From an uncultured Acidobacteriota bacterium (lineage in GTDB: Bacteria > Acidobacteriota > Thermoanaerobaculia > UBA5066): a stretch of 64,000 bases of DNA. Below, one piece after another: positions 31,490-53,664 of the stretch; position 1 is the first letter of the stretch; each line of letters opens with the position of its first letter. The stretch spans positions 305,511-369,510 of the forward strand of contig CAWIUK010000010.1 in NCBI GenBank assembly GCA_963839295.1, given 5' to 3'. A model generated the notes under the pieces. The model made no database searches. It was not told the DNA's origin and saw nothing but the letters and a program-made list of their open reading frames with translations. The position numbers and the translations under genes are program-made.

Positions 31490-33981
31490 AGCAGGAACCT
31501 CGCCCGGGTCGTCTCGAACTCCATCGCGCCGGCGGCCCATGCGCCCGTGATCTCGCCGGCCGTCTCGCCCCGCGTGAAGCGGGTGAGGGCGGCGGCGTTC
31601 ACGAGAAGGCGGTTGAAGCGCTCGGACTTCCAGTCCTTCGGGTGGAGGTCGCGGAGCGCCGTCGCGACGTGGAAGCCGAGGGCGACGGCGTCGAGCGCGT
31701 TGCGGTCGACGAGCGTGATCCTCACGCCCGAGCAGGCCTCCCCCTTGAAGACGGACGAGGACGGCGTGAATCTCACGGGCGTGAAGCGCACGCCGGCGAT
31801 CCCGCGCGCGTTCAGCGTGGCCGCGACGCGCGGCCCGTCCATCCACGGCGCGCCGAACTGCTCGAACGGCGCGTCCGTCCCGCGCCCGACGGAGACGTTC
31901 GTCGTCTCGAGGAGGCCGACGCCTGGGTAGAGCGCGGCCTCCGTGACGGAGCGCAGGTTCGGCGACGGGTTCACCCACGGCAGGCCCGTCTCGTCGTACC
32001 AGAGGTCGCGCGAGTACCCGGCCATCTTCACGACGGTCAGGTCCGCGCCGATCTTCCTCTCGGCGTTGAAAAGGCCGGCGAGCTCGCCGATCGTCATGCC
32101 CGTCCGGATCGGAATCGCGTGGTACGCGACGAACGAGAGCGCGTCGAGGTCGGCCGGCGGTCCTTCCGTGACGTCCGCCCGGATCGGGTCGGGCCGGTCG
32201 AGGACGACGACCTTGACCTTCGCCTTCGCGGCCTCCTCGAGGACGTACCCGACCGTCGTCAGGTACGTGTAGAAGCGGCAGCCGGCGTCCTGCAGGTCCA
32301 CGACGACGGCGTCGAGGCCGGCGAGGTCCTCGGCGCGAGGCCGCCGCGACTCGGGCGTGTCGCCGTAGAGCGAGCGGACGGGCAAGCCCGTCTTTTCATC
32401 GATCGAGTCGGAAACCTTCTCGTCGAGGGCGCCCCTGATTCCATGCTCGGGAGAGAAGAGCTTCGAAAGGGTCACTCCCGCGGCGCGAGCCTTCTCCGAG
32501 GAGAGGACGTCGATGGTGGGCCGGCCGTCCCGCGTGAGCCCTGTGTGATTAGTGAGGAGGCCGATGCGCATTCCCGCGATGGCCTTGAATGAAGATTCTT
32601 CGAGTGTGTCGATGCCCGGCCGGACCTGCCCCACGAGGCGCGCCGGCGCAGCCGCGGCCCCATTCACCTTCGAAGAAGGCGCCGAAGGCGCGGAAGAATT
32701 CTGCGAAGGTGCCCGTGCCGAGCCGATCGCCGCGAGCTCCGCGACGCGCGCCGAAGCGTCGGCGAACGCTTTCGAAGAAATATCCGTGATCGCGCTCGCG
32801 ACGATCGAGGCGACCTTGCCGCGCAGCGCGACGACGTTGCCGGACTCGTCGGGGTGGTTGCGGTTCGTCAGGAGGACGACGAACGTGTCCGTCGCCGGGT
32901 CGAGCCAGATCGAGGTTCCCGTCCAGCCCGTGTGCCCGACGGATCCGAGCGGGAAGAGGTCGCCTCGGTTCGAGGAGAACGAGCTTCCGACGTCCCATCC
33001 GAGGCCGCGCAGGACGCCGTCGCCGTAGAAGCGGGGCCGCCACATCGACGCGACGCCCGCGGGCGAGAGGATGCCGCCTCCGCCCTTCAGCATCGCGGCG
33101 CAGAAGCGGGCGAGGTCGTCGGCGGTCGAGAAGAGGCCCGCGTGCCCCGCGACGCCGCCGAGCGCGTACGCCCGCGGGTCGTGGACGGCGCCGCGCCTCA
33201 CGACGCCGTTGATTTTCTCCGTCGGAGCGATGCGGGGAAGAGGAAGAGAGAGATTCCTAGAAGGTGAAGAAAGCGGGAGGAAGCCGGTGTCCTTCATTCC
33301 GAGGGGCAGGAACACGCGCTTCTTTGCGTATTCGTCGAGGGGAAGACCGGAGACGCGCTCGACCAGCTCGCCCAGCACCTCGAATCCGACGTCGGAGTAC
33401 ACGAAGCGTGCTCCGGGTGCGTTCGCGAGCGGCTGCCTGTATTTCCGTTCGAAGATCTCTTTCTTCGTCCCCGTGTAGAGCGCCATCGGATCGTCGGCCG
33501 CCAGTCCCGCGCGGTGCGTCAGGAGCTCCTCGATCGTGACCTGGTCTCTCGCTCCTCCGCCCGAGACGAACTCGGGGATGAACTTCGCGACGCGGTCCTG
33601 CAGGCGGATCTTCCCGTCTTCGACCAGCGTCATGACGCTCGTCGTCGTCGCGACGACCTTCGTGAGCGAGGCCATGTCGAAGACGGTGTCGGCCGTCATC
33701 GGCTCGACCGCGGGCGCGACCGCGCGATTCCCGTACGCCTTTCGGTAGACGACCTCGCCGTGCCGCCCGACGAGGACGACGGCCCCGGGGCACTCCTTCT
33801 TCGCGATCGACTCGTCGATCGCGGCGTCGAGCCGGGCGAGGCGGCTCGCGGACAATCCCGCGGAGGCGGGGGGGGCTGCGGGCAGGGGGCGGGCGGCCGC
33901 GGCCGCGAGGAGCATGGGGGCAAGGAGCATGCGTCTGAGTCTAGCCGCCCCCCGGGGGCTCTCTTGAAGCAATCGCATCAT
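31483..33981 (-). CDS. Fusion protein: beta-lactamase-fold serine hydrolase (AmiE-like) + DUF1343 (NamZ-like exo-muramidase)
   Basis: Signal peptide. The N-terminal domain has the ASLTK (SxxK) motif. The C-terminal ~390 aa start IGLLTNHTGLTRDGRPTIDVL...LFSPEHGIRG, typical of DUF1343. Confidence 0.8.
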   Translation of the reverse strand: MMRLLQESPRGAARLRRMLLAPMLLAAAAARPLPAAPPASAGLSASRLARLDAAIDESIAKKECPGAVVLVGRHGEVVYRKAYGNRAVAPAVEPMTADTVFDMASLTKVVATTTSVMTLVEDGKIRLQDRVAKFIPEFVSGGGARDQVTIEELLTHRAGLAADDPMALYTGTKKEIFERKYRQPLANAPGARFVYSDVGFEVLGELVERVSGLPLDEYAKKRVFLPLGMKDTGFLPLSSPSRNLSLPLPRIAPTEKINGVVRRGAVHDPRAYALGGVAGHAGLFSTADDLARFCAAMLKGGGGILSPAGVASMWRPRFYGDGVLRGLGWDVGSSFSSNRGDLFPLGSVGHTGWTGTSIWLDPATDTFVVLLTNRNHPDESGNVVALRGKVASIVASAITDISSKAFADASARVAELAAIGSARAPSQNSSAPSAPSSKVNGAAAAPARLVGQVRPGIDTLEESSFKAIAGMRIGLLTNHTGLTRDGRPTIDVLSSEKARAAGVTLSKLFSPEHGIRGALDEKVSDSIDEKTGLPVRSLYGDTPESRRPRAEDLAGLDAVVVDLQDAGCRFYTYLTTVGYVLEEAAKAKVKVVVLDRPDPIRADVTEGPPADLDALSFVAYHAIPIRTGMTIGELAGLFNAERKIGADLTVVKMAGYSRDLWYDETGLPWVNPSPNLRSVTEAALYPGVGLLETTNVSVGRGTDAPFEQFGAPWMDGPRVAATLNARGIAGVRFTPVRFTPSSSVFKGEACSGVRITLVDRNALDAVALGFHVATALRDLHPKDWKSERFNRLLVNAAALTRFTRGETAGEITGAWAAGAMEFETTRARFLLY
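33233..33280 (+). repeat. Low-GC dispersed repeat, copy B (inside CDS)
   Basis: GGGGAAGAGGAAGAGAGAGATTCCTAGAAGGTGAAGAAAGCGGGAGG. The 14-mer at 33254-33267 is identical to the reverse complement of 50659-50672. Confidence 0.7.
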
Positions 33982-37616: not shown

Positions 37617-39203
37617 GTGACGGACGGCGGGCGCGTCGATCTTGAAGGCCGCGTGGCGCTCCTCGAGGGCGCCCTCAGGGACGTTTCCGCGCGGCTCGCC
37701 GCGCTCGAGACCGCCCGCACAGGAGCCGGCGAAGTGGCTCCGGCCGTCCTCCCGGCGTCCGAGGCCCCGTCCCCGGCCGCGCGTCCGGAGGCGGCGCTCG
37801 CCGTGTCGGAGCCGTCGGCGCCGGTCCCGGAGGCAGGCGAGGACGGCGCGCCGGTCGCGAACGCTCTCACCCTCGCGGGGCGGAGCTTCCTGGTTCTCGG
37901 CGGCGCGTTCCTGCTGCGCGCGATCACGGAAGGCGGGCGCGTGCCCGCCTTCTCCGGCGCGCTCCTCGGCCTCGCGTACGCGCTCCTCTGGATCGGAGCG
38001 TCGTGGCGTACGGGGACCCGGGGCGCGCGGGCGAGCGCGAGCGTGCACGGCGTGACGGCGGCCATCATCGCGTTCCCCCTCGTGGGCGAGGCCGCGACGC
38101 GGCTGTCCGCGTTCTCGCCGGCCGCGGCGGCGATCGCCCTCGCAGCCGTCACGGCCGCGTTCTGCGCGTCGGGAGTCCTCGCGCGCCTGCCCCTGCTCGT
38201 CTGGATCGGCGTCCTCGCGGGCGCCGGAACGGCCGGCGGACTCTTCGTCGCGACCGGGTCGATCGCGACGTTCGTGACGTTCCTTCTCGCGCTCTACGCC
38301 GCGTCGCTCGTCCTTCGCCGGGGGCCCGGTGCGACCCGGATCGAGTGGATCCCGGGCGTCGCCGCGGCGATCACTCTCGCGATCGGCGCCTGGCTTTCCA
38401 CGCGCTCCGGCGGGACGCCCGAGAACTGGAGCGCGGTCGGCCCGGCCGGCATCGCCGTGCTGGCGGCCGCGCTCGTCCTTCTCGCGTTCGCGGGGGCGAT
38501 TCACGATGCCTGGTCTCGAGGCCTCATGCCGACGGCGACGGACGTCCTGCAGCCTGCCGGGGCCATCACGGTCGTCGTCGGGATCCTCTGGGGTGGCGCG
38601 GCCGTGGCCATCTTCTGGAGCCTCCTCGGAATCGTGTTGTCGGCGCGGGCGCCCCGCGACGGGCGCGGGTGGATCGCCTGGCTCGCCGGGGGAGTGGTCC
38701 TCGGCTCGTCCGTGCTCTCGGGTCTCTTCCGCGACGAGGTGCTCGCGTTCGTCGTGGCGCCGGACGCGTTCCCGTCCGCGTCGGGTCCGGCGGTGTTCGC
38801 CGGCATCGCGGCGCTCGTCGCCTACGTCGTCGCGGCGGCTGGCGTTCCCTCCGCGCCCGTCCTCAGGGGAGGGCCGGCGCTCGTGAGCGCGGCCGTCGCG
38901 CTGGGCGGCATCCTCGCGTTTGCGGTCGGGCTCGCGCCGTTCACGTCGACGCCGTCCGGCATCGCGCTCGTCCGCACCGCCGTCCTGTGCGCCGCCGCGC
39001 TCGCGGCGGCCTTCACGGCGCGCTGGCCGAGGCTCGCGACGCTGGCGCTCCTCGCGCTGCCTCTTCTCGCCGCGGCGGGGCTGAAGCTCCTCTTCGAGGA
39101 CCTGCGCGCCGGCCAGCCGGCGGCTCTGTTCGTGGCGTTCGCGATCTACGGGATCACTCTTCTCCTCGTGTCGCGGCTCGTGCGGCGAAGGAAGAGAGAT
39201 TGA
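37617..39203 (+). CDS. DUF2339-like polytopic membrane protein
   Basis: N-terminal coiled coil (LEGRVALLEGALRDVSARLAALE) is followed by >10 hydrophobic helices. Confidence 0.5.
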   Translation: MTDGGRVDLEGRVALLEGALRDVSARLAALETARTGAGEVAPAVLPASEAPSPAARPEAALAVSEPSAPVPEAGEDGAPVANALTLAGRSFLVLGGAFLLRAITEGGRVPAFSGALLGLAYALLWIGASWRTGTRGARASASVHGVTAAIIAFPLVGEAATRLSAFSPAAAAIALAAVTAAFCASGVLARLPLLVWIGVLAGAGTAGGLFVATGSIATFVTFLLALYAASLVLRRGPGATRIEWIPGVAAAITLAIGAWLSTRSGGTPENWSAVGPAGIAVLAAALVLLAFAGAIHDAWSRGLMPTATDVLQPAGAITVVVGILWGGAAVAIFWSLLGIVLSARAPRDGRGWIAWLAGGVVLGSSVLSGLFRDEVLAFVVAPDAFPSASGPAVFAGIAALVAYVVAAAGVPSAPVLRGGPALVSAAVALGGILAFAVGLAPFTSTPSGIALVRTAVLCAAALAAAFTARWPRLATLALLALPLLAAAGLKLLFEDLRAGQPAALFVAFAIYGITLLLVSRLVRRRKRD

Positions 39204-39215
39204 TTTTCTGCTGAG

Positions 39216-39238
39216 AGCGGCCGCTTCCCGCGGCCGCT
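39216..39238. terminator. Hairpin between convergent genes
   Basis: AGCGGCCGC-TTCCC-GCGGCCGCT, a 9-bp perfect stem. Confidence 0.5.
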
Positions 39239-39286
39239 CCGGAACGAATCTGTCGCGCGCGCCGATAGCAGAAAACTCCTCTTCTA

Positions 39287-41062
39287 TTATTTCTCCGCCG
39301 CGACGATCGCGCGCAGCTCGGCCTGCGTGCGGGAGACGCCGCCGCGGACGACCGCGTTCACCTTCCTCAGGTTCGCGACGTCGAGGAGCGGGTCGGCGCC
39401 GACGAGGAGGAAGTCCGCCTGCTTGCCCTTCGCGATCGTTCCGACGTCGTCGCGTCCCATCGCGCGGGCGGCGACGCTCGTCGAGGCGACGAGGACCTCC
39501 ATCGGCGTGAGGCCGGCGGCCTGCATGGCCTCCATCTCGGCATGGACCGACGGCCCGTGGAGCGTCCCGGGATTTCCGGCGTCCGTTCCCATCGCGATCG
39601 GGATGCCCGCGTCCCGCACGCGCCGGAGGTTCGCGGCCGCGACGGTCCTCGTGGACGCCGCGCGCTTCTCGAAGCGGGAGAGGTCGATTTCCTTCGGCAG
39701 CTCCAGATGGGCCGTCTCGGCGAGCCGGGCCCGCGTGGAGGGATCGACGCAGCCGTTCGGGTCGTCGAACGCGACGGGCGCGTGTGCGGCGAAGCCCCTC
39801 GCGACGGCGACGTAGCCGTCCAGGACGACGAGCGTCGGGTCGTAGATCGTGCCGTTCGCCTTCGCGAGCGCGAGGAACTCGTCGTCGACGGGCAGGTCCG
39901 AGACGCTGTGGACGAGGAGCTTCGCCCCGGCCTTCAGCGCGACCTTGGCCTCGGCGAGGCCCGTCGCGTGGACGATGAGCGGGAGGCCGTTCCTCTTGGC
40001 CTCCTCGCCCGCGGCGAGGACCGCGTCCGACGTCACCGTGACGGGCAGATCGGGCCGCACGAGGTACCAGACCTTCACGGCCTTCGCGCCGCGCGCCTTG
40101 AGGTACGCGACCTCGGCCTTCGCGCTCGCGGCGTCCTTCAGGAGGAGGAACTGGCGCTCGCCGGGGAGCGTCACCCAGTGGTCGACCGTCGAGAGGAGCG
40201 GCCCGGCCGCGGCCACGCGCGGCGCGAGCGAGTCGTTCTCGGCGCGCGCGGGGAGATCGAGCGACCACGCGTACCCGCCGACGTCGAAAACCGACGTCAC
40301 GCCCGAGCACACGTACGACCGGAAGAAGCGCTCCGGCCGCTCGCGCAGCTCCTTCTGGACCGCGTCGTAAGGGTGCGCCGCGCGGACGTCGAACGCGTCG
40401 GGGCGGCCGTCCGCCCAGCCCGTCTGCGCGAAGTGGACGTGCGCGTCCACGAGGCCCGGCACGATCCACGAGCCCTTCGCGTCCGTGGCCGCGACGCCCT
40501 CCGGGACGGGGCACGCGGACGCGGGGCCCACGCACGCGATTCGCCCGTCGCGCACGAGGACGACGGCGTTCTTCACGGCAGGCGCGCCGGTGCCGTCCAC
40601 GAGCGTGGCGCCCGTCCAGGCGCGGGGCGGCGGAGGCGTGCCGGCCGGGGACTCGAAGGCCGACGTCACGGCGATGCGCCAGCCCTTCGGCGTCTTCAGG
40701 AAGAGCCGCTCGGAGAGGCCGGAATGCTCCTCGGCGCCGTACCGGACGCGATACCGGTACGTTCCGGCGACGACGCCGGGGGAGACCGGCGTGAGCCTGA
40801 GGTCCTCCGCGACGAGCGTGTCGGGCCACTTCTCGCCCGCCTGCTTCGCGAAGTCCGCGAAGCCGAGGACGGGCCCCTCGGGCGCGACGCGGACGAGCTG
40901 CGCCGAGTCGAGGTAGCACGCGAGGTACGCGGCCTTGTCGCGTGTCTGGATCGCGGCGAGATTCCGCTCGAAGAGCGCCCGCGCATCGTCGACGTCGGAG
41001 GCGAGGATTGAGGAGGACGCTGCACAGAGGAATGCCCACACGAGTAGACGAAGACGTTTCAT
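39287..41062 (-). CDS. Secreted amidohydrolase with N-terminal NTF2-like (DUF4440/SnoaL-like) domain
   Basis: Start at MKRLRLLVWAFLCAASSSILA. The first ~130 aa are NTF2-fold-like. Then VPGLVDAHVHF and later amidohydrolase motifs. Confidence 0.75.
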   Translation of the reverse strand: MKRLRLLVWAFLCAASSSILASDVDDARALFERNLAAIQTRDKAAYLACYLDSAQLVRVAPEGPVLGFADFAKQAGEKWPDTLVAEDLRLTPVSPGVVAGTYRYRVRYGAEEHSGLSERLFLKTPKGWRIAVTSAFESPAGTPPPPRAWTGATLVDGTGAPAVKNAVVLVRDGRIACVGPASACPVPEGVAATDAKGSWIVPGLVDAHVHFAQTGWADGRPDAFDVRAAHPYDAVQKELRERPERFFRSYVCSGVTSVFDVGGYAWSLDLPARAENDSLAPRVAAAGPLLSTVDHWVTLPGERQFLLLKDAASAKAEVAYLKARGAKAVKVWYLVRPDLPVTVTSDAVLAAGEEAKRNGLPLIVHATGLAEAKVALKAGAKLLVHSVSDLPVDDEFLALAKANGTIYDPTLVVLDGYVAVARGFAAHAPVAFDDPNGCVDPSTRARLAETAHLELPKEIDLSRFEKRAASTRTVAAANLRRVRDAGIPIAMGTDAGNPGTLHGPSVHAEMEAMQAAGLTPMEVLVASTSVAARAMGRDDVGTIAKGKQADFLLVGADPLLDVANLRKVNAVVRGGVSRTQAELRAIVAAEK

Positions 41063-41075
41063 GTGCGGGATTATT

Positions 41076-41103
41076 GGAGATTTCTTAGAAAGGTGAGTGG
41101 GGC
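41076..41103 (+). repeat. Low-GC dispersed repeat, copy C
   Basis: GGAGATTTCTTAGAAAGGTGAGTGGGG, in the 5' region of the amidohydrolase gene. Confidence 0.7.
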
Positions 41104-41145
41104 GCGTGCAGCGCGTCAAGCCGCAGCGTCTCCCGCCGCCGATGT

Positions 41146-41170
41146 CCCTCTTCACCTTCTAAGAAGAACT
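41146..41170 (-). repeat. Low-GC dispersed repeat, copy D (inverted partner of C)
   Basis: CCCTCTTCACCTTCTAAGAAGAACT. It contains the GH3 gene stop codon (41152-41154). Confidence 0.7.
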
Positions 41171-42984
41171 GCCGTGGGTTCAAGGGGCGCAGCAGGTCTG
41201 GCAATCCCGTCCCCCCGCTTTGCGAGGCCCGGGATCGTGATCGGGAGATGCCCCTCGATCGCGGCCTCGCCGAACAGCGCCCGGACGGCCGCGACCTGAA
41301 CGACGTCCTGCGAGCCCCATGCGCAGAGGTACGTCGGGAGGGCGGGGAAGTCGCGCAGGAGGTACGGGCTTCCGAACGCGACCGCCACGACGGGCTTGCC
41401 GGAGGCGAGGAGGGCCGGGATCGCGATTCTTGCGGCGTCGGGGATCACGAACCTGCCCTGCCCGGAGCGCGCCCTCACGAACAGCGAGAGGAGGACGACG
41501 TCGGCGTCGCCGGCGGCCGCACCGGCGGCCTTCGCCTCGTCGGGCGTCGAGCGCGTGTCGAGGCGGACGATTTTCGCGCCCGGGACGCGCGAGCTGATCT
41601 CCCTGTTGAGCGTCCCGGCCGGCCCGTTGAGCGTCGGTTCGTCCGCGACGACGAGGGAGAGGAGTTTCCCGTCCCTCCCGAGCGGGAGGACGCCCGCGTC
41701 CACGCGCACGAGCGTCATCGAGCGGCGCGCGATCTCGGCCTCGAGGTCCTCGTGCGCGCGCGTCCCGACGATCGTCGCGATCTTCGCGACGGCCGGGACG
41801 CCCTTGTCGTAGAGCTCGAGACGCTTCTTGGCGTCGAGAATGCGCCGGACGCTCTCGTCGATCCGCGATTCGGGGATGCGGCCCGACCGGACGGCGGCGA
41901 TCACGGTCTTGACGGCGGCGTCCGTGTCGCTCGACAGGAGGATCTGGTCGGCTCCCGCGAGGATCGCGCGGATCGCGGCCTCGCCCGGCTCGTAGTAGGA
42001 GGTGATGCCGCCCATCCGCATCGCGTCCGTCACGACGAGGCCCTCGAAGCCGAGCTCCTTCCGCAGGACTCCGGTCACGATGGGGGCCGAGAGCGTGGCG
42101 GGGACCGCGCCGGACGGGGCCGCGACGACGTCCCCGATCGCGTCGACCGGCCGCGGCGGGTGCGCGAGAGCCGACACGGTCGTGGAATCGAGGGCGGGGA
42201 CGGAGACGTGCGCGATCATGACGGAGCCGGCGCCCGCGGCGATCCCGGCGCGGAACGGGACGAGCTCGACGGATTCGAGCCGCGCCCGGTCGGCGGACAC
42301 GGTCGCGAGCGAACGGTGCGAGTCCTCGGCGGTATCGCCGTGGCCGGGGAAGTGCTTCAGCGTCGCGAGGACGTGTCCGGACTGCAGGCCGCGAACGGTC
42401 GCCGCGACGTAGCGCGCGACGTCGGCCGGATCCTCGCCGAAGCTCCTCACGTTGATGACCGGGTTGTCGGGATTCACGTTCACGTCCGCGACCGGGGCGA
42501 AGACCTGAGCGACGCCGATCGCGCGCGCCTCCTCGGCAGTCGCGCGGCCCTGGCGCTCGGCCAGGGACGGGTCTCCGGTCGCGGCGATCGCCATCGCCCA
42601 GGGGCCATATGTTGCGTCCTCGAAGCGCATGCCCGACCCGGCCTCGAGATCGGCCGAGACGAGGAGAGGTGTGGGGGCCATCTCCTGCAGCTTCTGGATC
42701 AGGACCGCGGCCCCGTAGACGGTGGAGCGGGAGGAGAGGATCACGCCGCCGACGCGGTTGTCCACGACGTAGTGCCGGAGCGTCTGAAATGCGGCGGCAT
42801 CCTCGCTCATGAACGCCCCTCTCGCTTCGACGACGAAGAGCTGGCCGACCTTGTCCGCGAGGGGCATCGCGGAGACGCGGAGCGGCGGGACGGGACCCGG
42901 CGCCCGCATCGGGGCCGGGGGCGCGACGCAGGCGCCCGCGAGCGCCGCGAGGAGGACGGCGGCAGTCAGGGCGGGTCGGCGCAT
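41152..42984 (-). CDS. Glycoside hydrolase family 3 (NagZ-like beta-N-acetylhexosaminidase) with C-terminal domain, secreted
   Basis: Signal peptide MRRPALTAAVLLAALAGACVA. KHFPGHGDT and VSADLEAG motifs typical of GH3. Confidence 0.85.
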   Translation of the reverse strand: MRRPALTAAVLLAALAGACVAPPAPMRAPGPVPPLRVSAMPLADKVGQLFVVEARGAFMSEDAAAFQTLRHYVVDNRVGGVILSSRSTVYGAAVLIQKLQEMAPTPLLVSADLEAGSGMRFEDATYGPWAMAIAATGDPSLAERQGRATAEEARAIGVAQVFAPVADVNVNPDNPVINVRSFGEDPADVARYVAATVRGLQSGHVLATLKHFPGHGDTAEDSHRSLATVSADRARLESVELVPFRAGIAAGAGSVMIAHVSVPALDSTTVSALAHPPRPVDAIGDVVAAPSGAVPATLSAPIVTGVLRKELGFEGLVVTDAMRMGGITSYYEPGEAAIRAILAGADQILLSSDTDAAVKTVIAAVRSGRIPESRIDESVRRILDAKKRLELYDKGVPAVAKIATIVGTRAHEDLEAEIARRSMTLVRVDAGVLPLGRDGKLLSLVVADEPTLNGPAGTLNREISSRVPGAKIVRLDTRSTPDEAKAAGAAAGDADVVLLSLFVRARSGQGRFVIPDAARIAIPALLASGKPVVAVAFGSPYLLRDFPALPTYLCAWGSQDVVQVAAVRALFGEAAIEGHLPITIPGLAKRGDGIARPAAPLEPTAVLLRR

Positions 42985-44722: not shown

Positions 44723-45115
44723 GTGAGAGGCTTTCTCAGCCGCGCCGCCGTCTTCGTCCTGGTCGCGCCGCTGGCGCTGGGCGGGGCGTTCGGCCACGTC
44801 GACGGCATCGAGGCGCTCTCGCACGGCACCCAGCTCTTCGCGCCCGACCATCCGAACCATGCGCCGTTCGTCCCGCAGCCCGAGCACGCGTGCGCCGCGT
44901 GCGCCGTCGCGAACCTCCTGGCGCCCGCCCCCGCCCCCGTCTTCCTGGCGCCACCCGCGTCGCGCCCTTCTTCCGAGGCGCGCGCGGACTGCCTGCCCCC
45001 CCTCCTGCACCCCCGTCCCTTTCCGGCCGCTCGCCTCCCCCGGTCGCGTAGACGTCTTCCCGCCCGTGCGAACACGCCCGGGCCTTCGTCAACGCCTCGG
45101 AGGGAATTCCTTTGA
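44723..45115 (+). CDS. Small secreted His/Cys-rich protein (paralog of 50691-51068)
   Basis: Signal peptide ends GGAFG|HVDG. The conserved core SHGTQLFAPDHPNHAPFVPQPEHACAACAVANL is shared with the second copy. TTGA overlap with the next gene. Confidence 0.5.
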   Translation: MRGFLSRAAVFVLVAPLALGGAFGHVDGIEALSHGTQLFAPDHPNHAPFVPQPEHACAACAVANLLAPAPAPVFLAPPASRPSSEARADCLPPLLHPRPFPAARLPRSRRRLPARANTPGPSSTPRREFL

Positions 45116-46206
45116 AAGTAGAGAGAAGCAGGCGCTCCGCTCCGCGCCTCGTCCTGTTCGCAGAAATCTTCTTCTTCTCGCTTGCGGCCGGTTCGGCGGG
45201 CGCCCAGACCGCCCAGACGGGAAACGTCTTCAACCCGAACATCTCCGTGATCGGCGACGTGCTCGGCTGGGTCGGGCACAACCCGGTCGACAACCAGCCG
45301 AGCCTCGAACTGCACGAAGCCGAGATCGGCCTGCAGGCGATCGTCGACCCATACGCCCGCGCGGACTTCTTCGTGACGTTCGGGAGCCAGACGGGCGACG
45401 TCTCCATCGAGGAGGGCTACATCACCTTCCTGAACCTCCCCGGCGACTTCCTCGTGAAGGCCGGGAAGCTCAAGGGCGCGTTCGGGAAGGTCAACACGGA
45501 ACACCTCCACGTCCGCCTCTTCGCGGACACGCCCCTCTTCATGACGAACCTCCTCGGCACGGAGGACGGGATCGAGGACGCGGGCGTCTCGGTCTCGCGG
45601 CTCATCCCGATGCCGGCCGAGATCTTCCTCGAGGCGACCGCGCAGCTCTTCCAGGGGACGTCGACGGAACTCTTTCAGGCGCACAGCCGCAACGACGTCG
45701 AGCCCCTCTTCCATCTCAAGGCGTACCGCGACCTGTCCGAGTCGACGAACCTCGAGATCGGGGGCTCATGGACGCGCGCGAACAACCTCGAGGGGCCGGG
45801 CTTCACCACGGCGCTCACCGGTGTCGACGCGACGCTCCACTGGAAGCCCCTCCAGCAGGGCCTCTACCATTCCGTCCTCGTGCGGGGCGAGTGGATGCTC
45901 TCCGATCGCCAGATGGCCTCCGGGACGACGGTCCACGCGGCGGGCGGGTACCTCCTCGGACAGGTCCAGCTCGGCAGGCGCTGGTTCGCGGGCTGGCGCC
46001 ACGACGAGTGCGACCACGGCGACGACGCCTCGCTCCACGACCGGGGCGACTCGGCGATCCTGACGTTCTGGCCGTCGGAGTTCTCGCAGGTCCGCACCCA
46101 GCTCCGCCGCAACCGGTACGAGCGCACGGACGGCGCCGTGACGGCGACCGAGCTCCTCATCCAGCTCCAGTTCGTCATCGGCGCGCACGGCGCGCATCCG
46201 TTCTAG
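45112..46206 (+). CDS. Outer-membrane beta-barrel (porin-like) protein
   Basis: Signal peptide, alternating beta-strand pattern, C-terminal aromatic residue (…GAHPF). Confidence 0.55.
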   Translation: MKVERSRRSAPRLVLFAEIFFFSLAAGSAGAQTAQTGNVFNPNISVIGDVLGWVGHNPVDNQPSLELHEAEIGLQAIVDPYARADFFVTFGSQTGDVSIEEGYITFLNLPGDFLVKAGKLKGAFGKVNTEHLHVRLFADTPLFMTNLLGTEDGIEDAGVSVSRLIPMPAEIFLEATAQLFQGTSTELFQAHSRNDVEPLFHLKAYRDLSESTNLEIGGSWTRANNLEGPGFTTALTGVDATLHWKPLQQGLYHSVLVRGEWMLSDRQMASGTTVHAAGGYLLGQVQLGRRWFAGWRHDECDHGDDASLHDRGDSAILTFWPSEFSQVRTQLRRNRYERTDGAVTATELLIQLQFVIGAHGAHPF

Positions 46207-46211: not shown

Positions 46212-46268
46212 AAGAAGATGAAGATGAAGACGAAGAAAAGAGAAGATTTTCCGAGAAGGTCAATGGGG
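46212..46268 (+). repeat. Low-GC dispersed repeat, copy E
   Basis: AAGAAGATGAAGATGAAGACGAAGAAAAGAGAAGATTTTCCGAGAAGGTCAATGGGG. The 21-mer at 46228-46248 is identical to 63978-63998. Confidence 0.65.
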
Positions 46269-47267
46269 CCGCTCGCACAGGCCAAGGCAGCGCCAGGCGG
46301 CGCCGTCGGCGCGGCGTGCATCGGGCACCTTCTCAGAAATCTCTCCCTGTTCCCTCTCTCGTTCTCCCTCTTGCTCATCGTCTCGGCGCTCCTCGCGCCT
46401 GCCGCCGAGGCGAAGAAGCTGAAGGTCGTCACGACGCTGTCGGACTTCGCGTCGCTCGCGGCGACGATCGGCGGGGACCGCGTCGAGGCCGAGTCGATCG
46501 CGAAGGGCTACCAGGATCCGCACTTCGTCGAGCCGAAGCCGTCCTTCATCCTGAAGCTGCACGACGCGGACATGCTGGTCGTCGCGGGCCTCGAGCTCGA
46601 GATCGGCTACCTGCCGCCGCTCCTCGACCAGGCGCGCAACGAGAAGATCCGGCCGACGGGCGCGGGGTACCTCGACGCGTCCGTCGGGTGCGACATCCTC
46701 GACCGGCCCACGGGGCAGGTCACTCGCGCGATGGGCGACGTGCACCCGTACGGGAACCCGCACTACTGGCTCGACCCGAACAACGGGCGCGTGATCGCGC
46801 GCGCGATCGCCGCGAAGCTCACGGCGCTCGACCCGTCGGGCGCGGCGGCATTCGCGAAGAACCTCGCGGACTTCGAGGCGGTTCTGACGGCCGCCGAGGC
46901 CCGCTGGACGGCGCGCCTCGCCCCGTTCAAGGGGACGAAGATCGTCACGTACCACGCATCGTGGCCGAACTTCGCGAAGGCGTTTTCCCTCGACGTCGTC
47001 GGGTTTCTCGAGCCGAAGCCGGGCATCCCGCCGACGCCGCAGCACAAGCTCGAGATCATCAACCTCATGAACGCGCAGAAGGTCCCGATCATCCTCATGG
47101 AGGTCTACTTCGACAAGAAAGACCCGGACTTCGTCGCGTCGAAGACGGGCGCGACGGTCGTCGTGATCCCGCCGTCCGTCGGCGGCGTGCCGGCCGCGAA
47201 GGACTACATCTCGCTCTTCGACGTCGACGTCGAGAAGATCGCCACCGCGCTGGAGAAGAGGAAATGA
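46218..47267 (+). CDS. znuA: Metal (Zn/Mn) ABC transporter substrate-binding protein, ZnuA/TroA family
   Basis: DPHFVEPKPS, GDVHPYGNPHYWLDP and YHASWPNF motifs. The start is uncertain (46218 or 46263) because the N-terminus is built from repeat copies. Confidence 0.8.
   Translation: MKMKTKKREDFPRRSMGPLAQAKAAPGGAVGAACIGHLLRNLSLFPLSFSLLLIVSALLAPAAEAKKLKVVTTLSDFASLAATIGGDRVEAESIAKGYQDPHFVEPKPSFILKLHDADMLVVAGLELEIGYLPPLLDQARNEKIRPTGAGYLDASVGCDILDRPTGQVTRAMGDVHPYGNPHYWLDPNNGRVIARAIAAKLTALDPSGAAAFAKNLADFEAVLTAAEARWTARLAPFKGTKIVTYHASWPNFAKAFSLDVVGFLEPKPGIPPTPQHKLEIINLMNAQKVPIILMEVYFDKKDPDFVASKTGATVVVIPPSVGGVPAAKDYISLFDVDVEKIATALEKRK
46326..46376 (-). repeat. Low-GC dispersed repeat, copy E2 (inverted partner of E)
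   Basis: CACCTTCTCAGAAATCTCTCCCTGTTCCCTCTCTCGTTCTCCCTCTTGCTC. The reverse complement aligns with copy A over AAGAGGGAGA...GATTTCTNAGAAGGTG. Confidence 0.6.
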
Positions 47268-48140: not shown

Positions 48141-50582
48141 TTAGAATGCGTACTTGACGCGTCCCGCAAACGTGCGCGGCGGGATCACGTGCGTTCCTCC
48201 GAACGTGGACAGGAAGTTGTAGAGGCCCTGAGCGTCGAAGGCGTTGAGGAGGTCGAACTGGAGTTCGGCCGGGATCCCGTACTTCTGGAGCCGGGCTCCG
48301 AGGGAGAAGCTCCAGACCGTGCGGGACTTGACCCGCTGCGGATCCTCGTTGTAGCGGATGTAGGGGTCCGCGTAGGCCGTGTCCGGGCTCGAGAGAACGT
48401 CCGCGGGCGCACCCGCGTCCGTCACGAGACCGGAGTCGTAACGCTGGGTCATGCCCGCCCAGAAGCCCGTCTTTCCGAGGTCGTAGAAGAGTCCGACCTG
48501 CTCCTGGATGTCCTGATCGTGGTCGATGAGGAAGCAGCCTCCCTGGAAGGAGCTGAGGGCGTCGGAAGACAGGAAGAGGCCTCCGACGAAGGGGTTGCAG
48601 TACTCCGCGTGCACGTGGCCGACGGACGCGTACCCGTGCAGCCCCCCGAGGACGGGCGCGAGGTCGAGGCGCAGGTTCCAGCCCTGCAGGTAGCCGGTCG
48701 CGAAGTTGAGCGGGAAGACGATTCCCGTGTTGAAGAACTGGTCCTGGTCGGCCGCGTTGTGGACGCGCCGGTACCAGAGCGAGCCGTCGAATCGCAGCTT
48801 CGACCCAATTCCCTGCTGGACGCCGAAGTTCCACACGTCGTGGCGCTCGGAAACGTTGTAGAGCTGGCCGTTCCCGAGACCCTGGCTGTCCTGGATATCG
48901 GGCGGCGTGATCGACGCCGCCTGCGCGGACGAGGAGATCAGGATGTTCTCGTACTCGGGCGTGATGAACATCCGGTTGTAGGACGCGCGGAAGACGGTGT
49001 TCGTGGCCTTCAGGAAATAGGCAGCGCCGATTCGCGGGGCGAGCTGGTGCTCGGACACAAAAAGGTCGTTGTGGTCGTACCGGACGCCCACGTTCACCGT
49101 CAGGTCCTTCCAACGGATGTTGTCCTGGACGAACCCGGCGACATACGTGCCGGTGTCCGAGCCCGTGAAGAGGAACGGGCTCCCGCCGCGCGAGCCGTCG
49201 TAGGGCAGAAGGTTCGGGTTGTAACCGTCCATGGTCGGGTCGTTGTAGGAGGGATCCGTGATCAGGAACGAGAACTGCTCCTTGATCGGGAAGCGCTTGA
49301 GCTGGACCCCCGCCTTGAGCTCGTGGATTCCGACGGCGTCCGAGAGCGACAGGTTGATCCCCTGGTTCGCGAGCGAGCGGTTCTGGGACGCCTCGACGGG
49401 CGTGTCGTACGGGGACGAATACAGCGTGAGCCTATTGTCACGGGCGTAGACCTGCCCGTCGAGGATGAGCCCGTTCCCGAGGACGTTTTCGTACCCGAGG
49501 TTCAGGTTCCAGTCGTTCGAAACGACCTTCTGGTCCTGTCCCGCCGCTTCCTGGGAGGGGAGGTTCGTCACGTCGCGATCCGTTCGGCCGATGTTCCCTG
49601 TCAGGCGCCAGTTGCTCGCCGAATCCGCGGCGACGCCGTCGAGGCGCAGGAACGCGCGCAGCGTGCTGCCCGTGTTGTGGAAGTTGTCGAACGACACGGG
49701 GTCGAGGAAGCGGTCGGAGCGCGACGCATCGACGTCGGTGAACCACCCGAACCGGTCGTCGCCGCCGCCCGCGGACGCGGAGCCGGACGCGGTCTTGAAG
49801 CTCGCCGCGCCGAGCGACACCTCTCCCTTCGTCCCGCCCGAGCCGAGGCCCGAGCGCGTCGTGAGGTTGATGACGCCGTTCGCCTTTTCCCCGTATTCGG
49901 CCGGGATGCCGCCGGTGATGATCTCGATGCCCTCGGCGATGTCCGGGTTGAGCGAGTTCGAGAACGTGATCCCGACCTGGTCGCCGATGGGCTGGCCGTC
50001 GATCACGAGGAGCTGCTGGGAGTGGCCGCCCTGGAAGTGGTAACGGCCGTTCTCGTCGGCCGAGAATCCGGGAGCCGAGGTCACGATCGACTCGAAGGCG
50101 CGCCCCGGCATCGCCGCGGCGGTCTGCCGGATGAGCGACTTGTCGATGTCGGTGTGCGTCATGGACGTGTCGCTCTCGAGCTCGACACCTTCCGCCTCGG
50201 CGTGGACGGCTTCGGTGGCGGTCACGCCGAACCTCAAGACGACGTCTTTCACGACGGGGGCGCCGCCGCGCACGTCGATGTCCGCGTGGTAGGGCTCGAA
50301 GCCCTGTACCTGGACCGTCAGGTGGTACGGGTTCGGAGGAACGTTGTAGAGAAGATACATTCCGTCCGGCCCGGTCTTCGCCTCCTGCCGGTGCCCGCTG
50401 AAGTCGTTGGCGAGAACGACGACGACAGCGGGCATCGGCTGGCCGTCGGGACCGGTCACGCGGCCGCGCACCTGGCTCGGAGTCGGCGCGGCGGACGCGA
50501 GGCGCGCGGCCATTGCGAGCGACGCGACCGCGAAAAGAATGACGAGAGACGAGGCGCTTCGCGCCGTTCTGCGAATGAACAT
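48141..50582 (-). CDS. TonB-dependent receptor with N-terminal carboxypeptidase-regulatory-like domain
   Basis: Signal peptide, a CarboxypepD_reg-like beta-sandwich, a plug domain (IEIITGGIPAEYG), a long barrel, and the C-terminal KYAF. Confidence 0.85.
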   Translation of the reverse strand: MFIRRTARSASSLVILFAVASLAMAARLASAAPTPSQVRGRVTGPDGQPMPAVVVVLANDFSGHRQEAKTGPDGMYLLYNVPPNPYHLTVQVQGFEPYHADIDVRGGAPVVKDVVLRFGVTATEAVHAEAEGVELESDTSMTHTDIDKSLIRQTAAAMPGRAFESIVTSAPGFSADENGRYHFQGGHSQQLLVIDGQPIGDQVGITFSNSLNPDIAEGIEIITGGIPAEYGEKANGVINLTTRSGLGSGGTKGEVSLGAASFKTASGSASAGGGDDRFGWFTDVDASRSDRFLDPVSFDNFHNTGSTLRAFLRLDGVAADSASNWRLTGNIGRTDRDVTNLPSQEAAGQDQKVVSNDWNLNLGYENVLGNGLILDGQVYARDNRLTLYSSPYDTPVEASQNRSLANQGINLSLSDAVGIHELKAGVQLKRFPIKEQFSFLITDPSYNDPTMDGYNPNLLPYDGSRGGSPFLFTGSDTGTYVAGFVQDNIRWKDLTVNVGVRYDHNDLFVSEHQLAPRIGAAYFLKATNTVFRASYNRMFITPEYENILISSSAQAASITPPDIQDSQGLGNGQLYNVSERHDVWNFGVQQGIGSKLRFDGSLWYRRVHNAADQDQFFNTGIVFPLNFATGYLQGWNLRLDLAPVLGGLHGYASVGHVHAEYCNPFVGGLFLSSDALSSFQGGCFLIDHDQDIQEQVGLFYDLGKTGFWAGMTQRYDSGLVTDAGAPADVLSSPDTAYADPYIRYNEDPQRVKSRTVWSFSLGARLQKYGIPAELQFDLLNAFDAQGLYNFLSTFGGTHVIPPRTFAGRVKYAF

Positions 50583-50655: not shown

Positions 50656-50683
50656 AAATCACCTTCTAGGAAAATCTCTGGGT
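50656..50683 (-). repeat. Low-GC dispersed repeat, copy G
   Basis: AAATCACCTTCTAGGAAAATCTCTGGG. It lies about 85 nt upstream of the TonB-receptor start on its coding strand. Confidence 0.65.
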
Positions 50684-50690: not shown

Positions 50691-51068
50691 CTACGCCGCA
50701 AGGACAGGAGGAGAACGGCCGGGAAGCTCGGGAAGAGTGAGGGGGGGCGCCGCGCGCTCGACGTCAACCGCCGGAGCGAGGCGGATCTGGGGCGGAACGA
50801 GGTACACGGGAGCGGCCGCAGGCGGCACGAGGTTCGCCACCGCGCAGGCCGCACAGGGATGCTCTTTCTCGGGGACGAACGGAGCGTGGGCCGGATGATC
50901 GGGCGGGAAGAAGAACGTGCCGTGCGAGAGGACCTCGAAGCCGTCCACGTGGGAGAACGCGCCGCCGAGGACCAGCGGTGCGAGGGCCGCGAGGACGAGA
51001 ATCCGGAAGAGCCGCCGCCGGGTCACGGTTGAGATTCTATCGCGCCCGCGCGGCGGCTCCACCGCCAA
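50691..51068 (-). CDS. Small secreted His/Cys-rich protein (paralog of 44723-45115)
   Basis: The core GGAFS|HVDGFEVLSHGTFFFPPDHPAHAPFVPEKEHPCAACAVANL is ~65% identical to the other copy over ~60 aa. An alternative GTG start at 51026 gives a cleaner signal peptide. Confidence 0.5.
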   Translation of the reverse strand: MAVEPPRGRDRISTVTRRRLFRILVLAALAPLVLGGAFSHVDGFEVLSHGTFFFPPDHPAHAPFVPEKEHPCAACAVANLVPPAAAPVYLVPPQIRLAPAVDVERAAPPLTLPELPGRSPPVLAA

Positions 51069-52071: not shown

Positions 52072-52094
52072 GAAGCAGGTCTCCTTCTGGGGAA

Positions 52095-52140
52095 ATTCGG
52101 AGGAAGAATTTCTTAGAAAGAGAACGTGCGGGGAGGGGGC
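52095..52140 (+). repeat. Low-GC dispersed repeat, copy H
   Basis: AATTCGGAGGAAGAATTTCTTAGAAAGAGAACGTGCGGGGAGGGGG. The core supplies the TAA stop (52113-52115) of the Cys-rich ORF. Confidence 0.65.
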
Positions 52141-52487
52141 GCTTCTGGTTTTGGTACGCCCGTGCGCGGCCGGGTGGGCTGGAGCTCTGCGCTCCGGGTT
52201 GCGCTCTCCCTGTTTTCTCCCTCGAGGGAATTCTCCAGCGCCCTCTCGAAGGCGTCGAGGGGCGTCGCCGCGGTTGCCGGCGGCTCGCGACGGCAACTGC
52301 GCCACTCTGGTCCGTCGGCGGTCGCCTCGTCACTGCCCATCGCGCACGTGCCGTCTTCGCAGCACGCCATGCGGATGGCGCAGTGGCAGCCCCGGCGCGC
52401 GGCGCCCGCGGCCACGAGCGGCAGGACGGCCGCCACCGCCACGAGGGCGAGCATGAGCGCTGCGGCGGTGACCTTCATTCGGGGCAT
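52113..52487 (-). CDS. Small membrane-anchored/secreted Cys-rich protein
   Basis: MPRMKVTAAALMLALVAVAAVLPLVAAGA then RRGCHCAIRMACCEDGTCAMG. GC3 bias is strong in the first ~60 codons. The C-terminal half has low GC3 and is repeat-derived. Confidence 0.4.
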   Translation of the reverse strand: MPRMKVTAAALMLALVAVAAVLPLVAAGAARRGCHCAIRMACCEDGTCAMGSDEATADGPEWRSCRREPPATAATPLDAFERALENSLEGENRESATRSAELQPTRPRTGVPKPEAPPPRTFSF

Positions 52488-52566
52488 CGCGCGAATTCTA
52501 GAGGTTTCTTGTTTGAACCTCCTCTGATGGGACCGCGTCGCGGGGCCGCGGCCTAGAATCCCGGGC

Positions 52567-53664
52567 ATGCCGACCAGCCGCCGCACGTTCCTCGAGGAAG
52601 TCTCCTTCGCCTCCCTCATCGCGGGGTTTCCGCTCTCCGCACAGGCCGCGCTCACGAAGTACGCCGAGAAGCCGCCGGAGCCCGTCTTCCCGAAGGCGCT
52701 CCAGCCCGGGATGACCGTCGCGCTCGTGACGCCGTCGTCCCCCGGGGCGGGCCTCGGCGACACCGACTTCGGCGTCGAGATCGTCAAAGCCCTCGGCTTC
52801 AAGCCGAAGGTCTTCCCGCACGTGGGCGAGGCGACGCGCTACCTCGCGGGTCCCGACGAGCACCGCGCCGCCGACCTGAACGCCGCGTTCGCGGACCCGT
52901 CGGTCGACGGGATCCTCTGCCTGCACGGCGGGTACGGCGCGTCGCGCATCCTCCCGCTCCTCGACTACGAGGCGATCCGGAAGAACCCGAAGGTCCTCTG
53001 CGGGTACAGCGACATCACGGCGCTCCTGAACGCGATCCACCGCCTGACGGGACTCGTGACGTTCCACGGCCCCGTCGGCTCGGAGGTCCAGACGGACTAC
53101 ACGCTGGCCGAGTTCCGGCGCGTCCTCATGACGGCCCAGGCCGCGGGCCGCGTCGGCGCCCCGCCGGAGCCGAGGCCCGGGCAGAGGGAGCGCGGGATCT
53201 TCGTGGACCGCGAGAACTGGATCTACAAGCTCGCGCCCGGCAAGGCGAAGGGCCGCCTCGTGGGCGGGAACATCAGCGTCTTCTCGACGCTCGTCGGGAC
53301 GCCGTTCGAGCCGGAGCTCAAGGGTCGCATCCTCTTCCTCGAGGAAGTGGGCGAGGACCCGTACCGCATCGACCGCTGGCTGACGCAGTTTCTCCTCACG
53401 GGCAAGCTCTCCGGCCTCGCGGGAGTCGCGCTCGGGAAGTTCGCGCACTGCACGCCCGGCGACTACAAGCCGAGCTACGGCGGGCAGGGGCAGTGGACGT
53501 GGCAGGAGGTCTGCAAGGACCGCCTCGGCAAGCTCGGCATCCCCGTCGTCGCGAACCTCGTCTTCGGCCACGTGCCGGACAAGACGACGCTCCCGCTCGG
53601 CGTCATGGCCGAGCTGGACGGCGACGAAGGCACGCTGACGCTGCTGGAGCCCGCGGTCCGCTGA
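52567..53664 (+). CDS. LD-carboxypeptidase (S66 family, LdcA-like) with Tat signal
   Basis: Twin-arginine motif TSRRTFLEE. GYSDITAL Ser nucleophile motif and a C-terminal FGHVPDK His motif. Confidence 0.85.
   Translation: MPTSRRTFLEEVSFASLIAGFPLSAQAALTKYAEKPPEPVFPKALQPGMTVALVTPSSPGAGLGDTDFGVEIVKALGFKPKVFPHVGEATRYLAGPDEHRAADLNAAFADPSVDGILCLHGGYGASRILPLLDYEAIRKNPKVLCGYSDITALLNAIHRLTGLVTFHGPVGSEVQTDYTLAEFRRVLMTAQAAGRVGAPPEPRPGQRERGIFVDRENWIYKLAPGKAKGRLVGGNISVFSTLVGTPFEPELKGRILFLEEVGEDPYRIDRWLTQFLLTGKLSGLAGVALGKFAHCTPGDYKPSYGGQGQWTWQEVCKDRLGKLGIPVVANLVFGHVPDKTTLPLGVMAELDGDEGTLTLLEPAVR

Follow-up and report, generated by a model that had tools for sequence, protein, structure and literature searches.

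The 64,000-nt stretch analysed here (the window) belongs to the genome of an uncultured bacterium (GTDB lineage Bacteria; Acidobacteriota; Thermoanaerobaculia; UBA5066; NCBI GenBank assembly GCA_963839295.1, contig CAWIUK010000010.1, positions 305,511 to 369,510) and has a GC content of 65-77% throughout. Between its genes for a NagZ-like GH3 protein and an amidohydrolase are two short AT-rich sequences that face one another across a GC-rich spacer. This focal pair belongs to a real, previously undescribed and lineage-specific family of short interspersed repeats of the repetitive extragenic palindromic (REP) or miniature inverted-repeat transposable element (MITE) kind, the members of which mostly pair face to face, lie at the ends of genes or in frame within them, have for the most part the character of insertions when intragenic, and have been retained vertically with some turnover. 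Thermoanaerobaculia are abundant, nearly all uncultured Acidobacteria of soil and sediment, and we know of no account of their repeats, terminators or mobile DNA.

The focal pair sits between the ancestral stop codon of the GH3 gene and the conserved AATAAT-N7-ATG of the amidohydrolase gene. Read on the transcribed (-) strand, the amidohydrolase-side repeat is CCCCACTCACCTTTCTAAGAAATCTCC, followed by AATAAT, 7 nt and the ATG at 41063. It is also found upstream of the orthologous amidohydrolase in L205 and L206, two of seven syntenic loci used for comparison (L201-L207), despite different upstream genes, and is degenerate in L204 and absent in L207. The AATAAT-N7-ATG box (41064-41076), which is separate from the repeat, is kept in four related genomes. 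The GH3-side repeat is missing from L204, where another hairpin replaces it. GH3 orthologs end in RPATPR or AKPVASR and are without an LLRR tail, whereas the window protein carries a 9-aa C-terminal extension (ending PLEPTAVLLRR; 41152-41182) that is absent from 18 orthologs and is terminated by a TGA within the repeat. One missing base at the ancestral CGT TGA accounts for the extension, whether it reflects a real frameshift or an assembly error; the frame is then read nine codons further, to the TGA of the repeat, and the GH3-side repeat truly begins ∼12 nt past the ancestral stop codon. In the closest GH3 relative (P0121) the GH3-amidohydrolase spacer is likewise 117 nt long, a comparison of gene spacing only. 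When folded as RNA, 41064-41182(-) forms a single hairpin of -41.3 kcal/mol with ∼15 arm-arm pairs and an inner GC stem.

The repeated unit (arm) is an AT-rich sequence of ∼30 nt composed of a variable polypurine tract and GATTTCTTAGAAGGTGA(A/G)(G/T)(A/G)GGGG; the tract is often GAAGACGAAGAT or GATTCG, followed by GATTTCTTAGAAGGTGAAGAGGGG, and one subtype of arm ends in GGTGAGTGGGG. An alignment of 44 arms, all from other genomes, gives the consensus AGnnGAAGATTTCTTAGAAGGTGAAGAGGG. This alignment was the seed of a non-circular profile (R1), a sequence-only covariance model with which the window was scanned with filters off. The consensus is self-complementary in TTCTTAGAA only (4+1+4), and a hairpin requires two separate arms. 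GTAG is absent from it, and CGTC occurs only as the complement of GACG within the GAAGACGAAGAT flank of some copies (11005, 46228 and 63978 in the window; L125, L180 and L190 elsewhere), with no fixed end. Among the matches listed, in the window and 49 related high-GC contigs, all 16 clear pairs with arms less than 300 nt apart face inward at distances of 24-290 nt, the GGGG ends innermost and the polypurine tracts outermost, and fold into long stems. Only this orientation places the A/U-rich parts at the base of the stem, which explains why only facing pairs are seen. The spacers between arms are GC-rich, 13-290 nt long and have no sequence common to different loci. A degenerate doublet at 32656-32711, in which, along the gene, a reverse arm precedes a forward arm, is the sole back-to-back arrangement seen.

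Two minor sequence features accompany reverse arms. A tandem heptamer, (CCGAAAT)n, follows one such arm in L137 (1000-1045), and ATCCGAATC recurs after others (11020-11035 and 16423-16445 in the window; L125 and L158), a pattern that points to a subfamily whose GATTCG-GATTTC head is duplicated. Two conventional identities for the arm were considered and rejected. Although AGAAGGTGA matches eight of nine bases of a full Shine-Dalgarno sequence, the consensus has no start codon at the appropriate distance, and the reverse arm contains no sigma-70-like -35/-10 match and is followed by a polypyrimidine sequence and not by a -10 box. No Rfam family matched at gathering thresholds, and literature searches for the arm sequence and for Thermoanaerobaculia repeats returned nothing relevant, in keeping with a first-pass annotation of this DNA, in which the core was not recognized from any described REP or MITE family.

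The abundance of the arm in the window is far above chance. TTCTTAGAA occurs six times, as first counted, against 0.02 expected from dinucleotide shuffles, and is the top over-represented 9-mer of the window under an order-3 Markov model (0.036 expected); TTCTTAGAAGGTGA with up to three mismatches was found 13 times against 0.7 expected. Against shuffles the enrichment of the core exceeds 100-fold, and a fuzzy search of shuffled loci gave no matches. The three long exact matches described in the first-pass annotation are all at the positions given there, namely a 20-mer at 11036-11055(+) and 41146-41165(-), a 14-mer at 33254-33267(+) and 50659-50672(-), and a 21-mer at 46228-46248 and 63978-63998. 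R1 recovers eight arms at E<0.01, including one that had been overlooked (32656-32677), and lends some support to every one of the 11 copies listed as clear (seven at E<0.01, the rest at E 0.08-8). A dispersed family in which facing pairs fold into hairpins is thus borne out by the profile scan and by RNA folds, and three of the four inverted-pair loci proposed are real (11012/11178, 41066/41165 and 46230/46358); the fourth, 52493/52553, consists of two divergent, putative TAGAAT-N7-ATG promoter boxes. The weaker relatives had to be largely abandoned, as the R1 scan and their context show most to be non-members and several to be putative TAGAAT -10 boxes of leaderless genes: 8541, 13399 and 51028 are undetected by R1 (E>10), the TAGAAT-N7-RTG pattern accounts for 51028, 52493 and 52553, 48138 marks where the gene for a TonB-dependent receptor finishes in Phe-stop (TTC TAA), and 39190-39286 is a distinct hairpin (TTTTCTGCT...AGCAGAAAA). 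That at 45150-45185 is at best half of a degenerate pair (45099/45162). The arms of the window and the genes that bear on them are collected in Table 1, for which genes were called from codon statistics, Pfam and the annotation of syntenic loci.

Table 1. Repeat arms of the window and associated genes (E values and bit scores from profile R1).
Feature	Position	Strand	Evidence and remarks
PIG-L family deacetylase gene, 873 aa	9484-12105	-	Pfam; carries facing arm pair
Best-scoring arm, antisense in PIG-L family deacetylase gene	11012-11058	+	30.9 bits, E 1e-8; encodes insertion ASPSSPSKKSESSSSSPSSIP
Partner arm in PIG-L gene	11143-11178	-	E 4 (11151-11164); orthologous arm E 0.009 in L201, 0.007 in L203
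Weak reverse arm	29455-29482	-	E 0.93 (29461-29476); exact 9-mer
Beta-lactamase-NamZ fusion gene	31483-33930	-	Pfam domains
Two degenerate arms 12 nt apart, beta-lactamase/NamZ linker	32656-32711	-	E 0.0024 (32656-32677, -), E 0.68 (32679-32711, +)
Arm antisense in beta-lactamase domain of fusion gene	33234-33276	+	E 3e-5; encodes LSSPSRNLSLPLP
Amidohydrolase gene	39287-41063	-	Flanks focal pair
Focal arm, amidohydrolase side	41066-41103	+	17.2 bits, E 3e-4
GC-rich spacer of focal pair, 42 nt	41104-41145	-	Single hairpin together with arms
Focal arm, GH3 side (TTCTTAGAAGGTGAAGAGGG on - strand)	41146-41170	-	21.6 bits, E 1e-5 (41146-41165); exact 20-mer common with 11036-11055
NagZ-like GH3 gene	41152-42984	-	Flanks focal pair
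Degenerate facing pair round GC hairpin 45130-45149	45099-45183		E 3.4 and 0.33; two-way-terminator architecture
Forward arm of znuA 5' pair	46230-46269	+	E 0.08; polypurine flank holds znuA start codons
Reverse arm of znuA 5' pair	46326-46358	-	E 0.0011; encodes GHLLRNLSL just before signal-peptide core
Single forward arm	50659-50681	-	E 0.0038; exact 14-mer common with 33254
Single arm between two - strand genes	52089-52118	+	E 0.0034; 35-45 nt upstream of GTG start at 52071
Polypurine half-arm, cut by window end, tail of zinc-ribbon protein gene (Pfam)	63972-64000	+	E 7.9 (63976-63998); exact 21-mer as 46228-46248

Outside the window, a metagenome scan with TTCYTAGAAGGTGAAGA matched at least 120 loci. 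Among the matches listed, ∼50 in contigs of 65-72% GC share the flanks of the arm, with (purine-rich)GAT before the core and GGGG after it, and those in low-GC contigs are ordinary FLEGEE coding in EF-G, PurD and AroA. The lineage of the arm-bearing contigs can be named from their annotated homologs, as PIG-L and GH3 homologs of 66-94% identity come from metagenome-assembled genomes annotated as Thermoanaerobaculia or Acidobacteriota, and the arm is absent from the orthologous loci of other phyla and classes. A phage or prophage origin was rejected, the 45 17-mer matches in viral contigs lacking the extended consensus and being due to chance or coding. On the sequences compared, only a clade of metagenome-assembled genomes within the Thermoanaerobaculia carries the family. 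In ∼126 kb of syntenic DNA from five related genomes R1 finds 16 arms, 12 of which were already in the seed alignment; together with the eight in the window this gives a density of ∼0.13 arms/kb, which would extrapolate to ∼450-500 arms per genome of 3.7-3.9 Mb.

Arms outside genes are found shortly after stop codons, in the gap between convergent genes, or immediately ahead of the promoter of a following gene. Among intergenic or edge arms located 0-35 nt past a stop codon, ∼17 are in the forward orientation and only one or two in reverse, by a hand count over the window and the metagenome loci listed that rests on our own gene calls. Pairs between convergent genes are found in L111 and in L204 (13820/13892), and the TAG, TGA and TAA of arms often serve as stop codons. 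In the window, the arm at 50659-50681 appears to lie ∼9 nt past the end of a small predicted gene (∼110 aa) on the minus strand and is 77 nt upstream of the gene for the TonB-dependent receptor (48141-50582, -), and the complement of that at 52089-52118 would donate a TAA stop codon to a short putative minus-strand gene (52113-52487). Several arms form the A-rich head or T-rich tail of a structure with the architecture of an intrinsic two-way terminator. That at 29455-29482 is the T-rich tail after a GC hairpin (29436-29452) downstream of an FmdA-like gene, and a terminator-like match was obtained by scanning at 29436-29482 (CGGTGGCTCCGCCGCCG and TATTTAGTTT); matches were also obtained on the minus strand at 45149-45125, within the degenerate pair at 45099-45183, and in each of L121, L151 and L117 a lone forward arm precedes a GC hairpin with a T-run.

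The copies had initially been treated as intergenic, a view that does not hold, since at least six of the ∼12 window arms are inside reading frames (the PIG-L deacetylase gene, the beta-lactamase-NamZ fusion gene and the 5' end of znuA). Among the matches listed, 58 of 84 arms fall inside called coding sequences, which is an upper bound because our codon-statistics calls in the metagenome loci over-extend reading frames; the location was verified by homology for seven proteins. The consensus forward arm has a single stop-free frame, GAT TTC TTA GAA GGT GAA GAG GGG (DFLEGEEG), the other two meeting TAG or TGA, and the reverse arm has two, which encode SSPSKKS and LHLLRNL. Third codon positions of the genome are 93% GC, and the arms use its rarest codons. 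The majority of intragenic arms are 10-40-aa insertions, located in surface loops and linkers of conserved proteins. In related genomes arms lie in frame in CysRS, AlaRS, Alr, RNase R, a Mur ligase, RecG and LysRS. In the alanine racemase of L175 the pair and its spacer constitute a 38-aa insertion between the two domains, in the CysRS of L158 each arm is a small insertion of its own, one before and one after the native DALR domain, and two genomes share the site of the RNase R element. Stop codons have been edited out of translated arms, by TTTG in CysRS and by CTG AGA or CTT AGA in PIG-L.

In the window, the best-scoring arm is a 22-aa insertion in the PIG-L protein when compared with orthologs of other phyla and with more distant Thermoanaerobaculia orthologs, and L203 represents the empty site. 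The loop concerned contains none, one, two or at least three SPSKK units across a clade of 66-90% identity and none in Thermoanaerobaculia orthologs of 55-62% identity; in L253 it holds two reverse arms in direct tandem. Turnover is evident in this polymorphism and in the absence of the GH3-side arm from L204. The surface loop is an insertion hot spot (orthologs P0002-P0110) in which SPSKK units are often followed by a second recurrent peptide, RRGEGPKQ, which may be the forward arm read in another frame. L204 and L207 have the beta-lactamase arm at the corresponding position, with lengths that differ by 6 and 12 nt. A conservation excess at this arm was considered and discarded, as the flanking coding DNA is itself 82% identical between the genomes and there is hence no sign of extra constraint.

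The znuA pair lies within the first 50 codons of the gene and is present in all four syntenic relatives L204-L207 (GH3 identity 67-87%), its arms near-invariant and its spacer and flanks more diverged. The frame is held open in the five genomes by differing mutations that remove TGA, giving GGGTAA, TCA or TTA, which places the start codon in the polypurine strand of the stem, where it would be a possible translational control point. The consensus hairpin of the five orthologs has 47 pairs, seven of which are changed on both sides, including a T-to-G in both arms of the window copy. Gene predictions, and seemingly the cell itself, begin znuA upstream of the pair (46218-46380; likewise in L204-L207), so that the protein has an N-terminal extension of ∼50 aa before its signal peptide. 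Although the polypurine flank is elsewhere variable, its 21-mer is common to 46228 and 63978 and is lacking from the znuA orthologs, a further sign of turnover that points to recent copying or conversion within the genome.

The preferred reading, to which we would give about an even chance, is that the family is a hairpin repeat comparable to REPs, to bacterial interspersed mosaic elements (BIMEs) and to the Rickettsia palindromic elements (RPEs), probably of mobile origin, and that its members act as terminator-like flanks. A transcript, or a single DNA strand, can form a stem with an A/U-rich base and a GC-rich top, and intergenic hairpins would end or stabilize transcripts, as suggested by their terminator-like position and architecture, the arms supplying A-rich and U-rich flanks that are rare in a 71% GC genome. 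Spread of the arms would be mainly by insertion, which in part has been observed, and the most plausible candidate for a mobilizer would be an acidobacterial Y1 (RAYT/TIRYT-type) transposase acting in trans. Within genes, arms persist only in stop-free frames or once mutations have removed the stops, as RPEs do, and are afterwards inherited vertically across genera.

The family works like REP, REPIN and MITE elements and like the uptake signal and DNA uptake sequences (USS/DUS), yet it belongs to none of the families described. Most REPs lie downstream of reading frames in the gaps that separate unidirectional or convergent genes; they can supply stop codons, and occasional copies are intragenic (PMC3733652). 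Resemblances of the present family to REP, BIME and REPIN elements are the hundreds of short copies per genome (an extrapolation here), the inverted doublets that fold into larger hairpins, the downstream or convergent placement, the donation of stops, the occasional intragenic copies and a presumed transcription within mRNAs (PMC3733652, PMC3116915). A single arm is, however, no palindrome of 20-40 nt, the GTAG tag is absent, the element is AT-rich in a GC-rich genome, and although the intergenic arms keep to the extragenic rule, a large share of copies is in coding sequence. No REP-associated tyrosine transposase (RAYT) was found in the window or in L201-L207. Unlike that of a REPIN, the spacer is neither fixed in length nor conserved in sequence and is sometimes a native protein domain; arms act as the inverted repeats of a MITE would, but the internal sequence is unconserved. 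The initial description as MITE- or REP-like consequently stands as regards position at gene ends and between genes, and falls short in the defining features of insert, palindrome and tag. A further parallel in organization is offered by the families of terminal inverted repeats (TIRs) and TIRtrons, non-palindromic inverted-repeat units that occur as singles, dimers and clusters and are known in Acidobacteria (Koribacter; PMC3733652), a phylum with its own group of TIR-associated Y1 transposases and TIR repeat families (Di Nocera et al. 2013, PMC3733652). The arms show no evident GGGGWSAS motif of the published kind, no arm-flanked transposase gene was seen, and the link to Y1 enzymes is a lead to a plausible route of mobilization in trans.

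Precedent for the in-frame insertion of repeats is provided by RPEs (PMC10969869), which are likewise hairpin repeats found in frame in unrelated housekeeping genes, translated as hydrophilic loop insertions and kept among related species (PMC10969869); the in-frame arms of PIG-L, beta-lactamase-NamZ, znuA, CysRS, Alr, RNase R and a Mur ligase are their counterparts here. RPEs are conserved over a full length of 100-150 bp and reside in AT-rich obligate intracellular hosts, whereas in the present family conservation is limited to the arms of ∼30 nt, which can bracket native domains; by Rfam and literature matches there is no sequence relationship to the ten RPE families. The pneumococcal SPRITE, the neisserial Correia/NEMIS elements and two-way terminators share with the family a GC stem, an A-rich head, a U-rich tail and a placement at gene ends or between convergent genes. 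They differ from it in that the U-tail here is interrupted, many copies are intragenic and termination is predicted from sequence, and the TA duplication and TIR-defined insert of Correia elements are lacking.

Several observations weigh against the preferred reading. Stems form when the inverted pairs are folded, as had been anticipated, but the z-score of the focal pair is only -1.7 in this GC-rich background; a simple consensus scan for terminators does not call the focal pair, the tail of which, UUCUAAGAAAUCUCC, is an interrupted U-tail; and the covariation term of the znuA hairpin is unfavourable overall. No cognate transposase and no convincing target-site duplication, both of which the first-pass annotation proposed to look for, was found. 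The window and the seven syntenic loci contain no transposase or recombinase, and the only candidate duplication is a doubtful GATCC/GATGCC at the PIG-L insertion of two related genomes, where, at the one locus compared, the empty site of L203 reads TCG|GATCCT and the filled sites of the window and L201 have GATGCC or GATCCG on the left and GATCCT on the right; at the Alr insertion none is recognizable. The spacers are unrelated between loci and are sometimes native (the CysRS DALR domain, a PIG-L segment), so that a pair is not one inserted element. The upstream arm of the PIG-L gene is a native helix, GEILRKVEGDF, with no length change relative to homologs, which insertion leaves unexplained; it is written in rare AT-rich codons (GAG ATT CTG AGA AAG GTG) and is present even in L203, where its partner is lacking. 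Finally, orthologous arms are kept across genomes whose flanking proteins are 67-87% identical, and those of znuA are better conserved than their spacer, a retention that suggests host-level constraint and not selfish decay.

The last three of these observations could be accommodated if the arm were not selfish DNA but a signal maintained by the host and read in a sequence-specific manner by some factor acting in trans, such as a hairpin-binding protein or a system akin to those of uptake or repair. We consider this unlikely, and have kept it in view because arms around native domains, the arm in a native helix and strong retention are not explained by simple transposition. Arms would then have been written by drive, conversion or templated mutation into the native coding sequence of essential genes throughout the clade, which would explain why some arms involve no length change, why pairs strictly face each other even where they enclose native domains, and why arms are retained across genera. 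If true, the arms would be a new kind of genome-wide sequence signal and not fossils of transposition.

A more specific proposal, to which we assign a slightly smaller probability, is that the arm is a recognition sequence which the host maintains and molecular drive has spread, as with the USS/DUS of Pasteurellaceae and Neisseriaceae, in which case preferential uptake and recombination would cause copies to accumulate by point mutation wherever tolerated, genes included, and facing pairs would double as terminators. Like USS/DUS, the arm is a lineage-specific oligomer that occurs on both strands, in and out of genes, is accommodated by codon choice and forms inverted pairs at gene ends, as in Neisseria. 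The proposal gains from the absence of any clear bias between sense and antisense arms in coding sequence (31 and 27, respectively, among the matches listed), the rare-codon arm in the PIG-L helix and apparently a similar one in a methionyl-tRNA formyltransferase (identified by eye only; L088 and L160), the conservation of orthologous sites, the restriction to one lineage and the preference for stop-free frames. Uptake drive does not, however, produce insertions of the kind that most intragenic arms represent, nor a loop with tandem arms; the density is ∼10-fold below the roughly 1/kb of USS/DUS, the conserved unit (∼28 nt plus the polypurine tract) is far longer than known uptake cores, and the orientation of arms relative to neighbouring genes and to partner arms follows strong rules.

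On a level with the uptake proposal we place an operator bound in trans by a global regulator or nucleoid-associated protein that would recognize the palindrome TTCTnAGAA with its asymmetric flanks, pairs of sites allowing looping or cooperative binding. The 4-1-4 palindromic core, a degree of sequence conservation beyond what pairing alone demands, the overlap of an arm with the amidohydrolase promoter region in three genomes, directly upstream of the -10-like AATAAT-N7-ATG, and the pair that spans the znuA start region in five would all be expected of an operator, but most copies are within coding sequence or past stop codons and not at promoters, the spacing of paired sites varies from 24 to 290 nt, the adjoining genes are without common function and the flanks are compositional (polypurine) and not specific.

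Recombination sites of a global invertase, which would flip segments and so switch promoters or recode proteins (invertons, including intragenic ones), would likewise be a shared inverted repeat around short segments at many loci, some of them intragenic, and the palindromic core could serve as the crossover site. Inversion would, however, destroy essential proteins such as CysRS, AlaRS, Alr, a Mur ligase and RNase R, whose genes contain spacers, the five znuA orthologs agree in the orientation of their spacer, many arms appear single and no recombinase gene was seen nearby, which makes this explanation very improbable. Still less credible is the notion that there is no DNA element at all, only chance low-complexity sequence or convergent protein motifs (SPSKK and DFLEGEE linkers), since, even though translated arms give Ser/Pro/Lys-rich or acidic linkers and the low-GC matches to the 17-mer are plain protein coding, the same DNA recurs in three frames, on both strands and in non-coding DNA, in the rarest codons and in large excess over shuffles, and this independence of frame and strand effectively refutes it.

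The 17-21-mer is a lineage marker by which Thermoanaerobaculia contigs can be picked out of metagenomes, and the family is a likely handle on transcript ends in a 70% GC genome poor in U-tracts. Gene callers extend or fuse frames through arms, as in the GH3 tail, the znuA N-terminus and the loop insertions of tRNA synthetases. With its arms in housekeeping genes the family is a second clear case, this one outside Rickettsia, of hairpin repeats in frame in such genes, which bears on the origin of loop insertions in proteins.

The boxes mistaken for weak copies belong to a set of their own, TAGAAT-N7-ATG/GTG occurring four times in the window against 0.03 expected (12094-12109(-), 51024-51039(-), 52485-52500(-) and 52554-52569(+)). 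These and the AATAAT box look like the -10 boxes of leaderless mRNAs, and would suggest the ATG at 12096 as the true start of the PIG-L gene, and 52487 and 52567 as the starts of a divergent pair of leaderless genes. A second type of hairpin, GATTTTCTGCT...(GC-rich GCGGCCGC stem)...AGCAGAAAAC, is found between convergent genes at 39190-39286 and, in L204, in the GH3-amidohydrolase spacer (11810-12015), and may be a sister family of the arm repeat. An inverted repeat of 244 nt and 71% identity (44763-45006 and 50740-50983) appears to comprise two paralogous small genes of ∼110 aa, one of which has a TAGAAT-N7-GTG box before it and a repeat arm after it. The neighbourhood abounds in functions for the recycling of cell-wall sugars and peptides, which include the PIG-L deacetylase, the beta-lactamase-NamZ (exo-MurNAc-ase) fusion, the NagZ-like GH3 protein and an LD-carboxypeptidase (S66; 52567-53664) named from the syntenic loci L206 and L207. 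Tandem coding repeats are present at 56188-56349, as three units of 54-60 nt in one gene, and at 59092-59175, as three 21-nt units (KDQEKA-like) in the gene for a DUF4097 'toastrack' protein.

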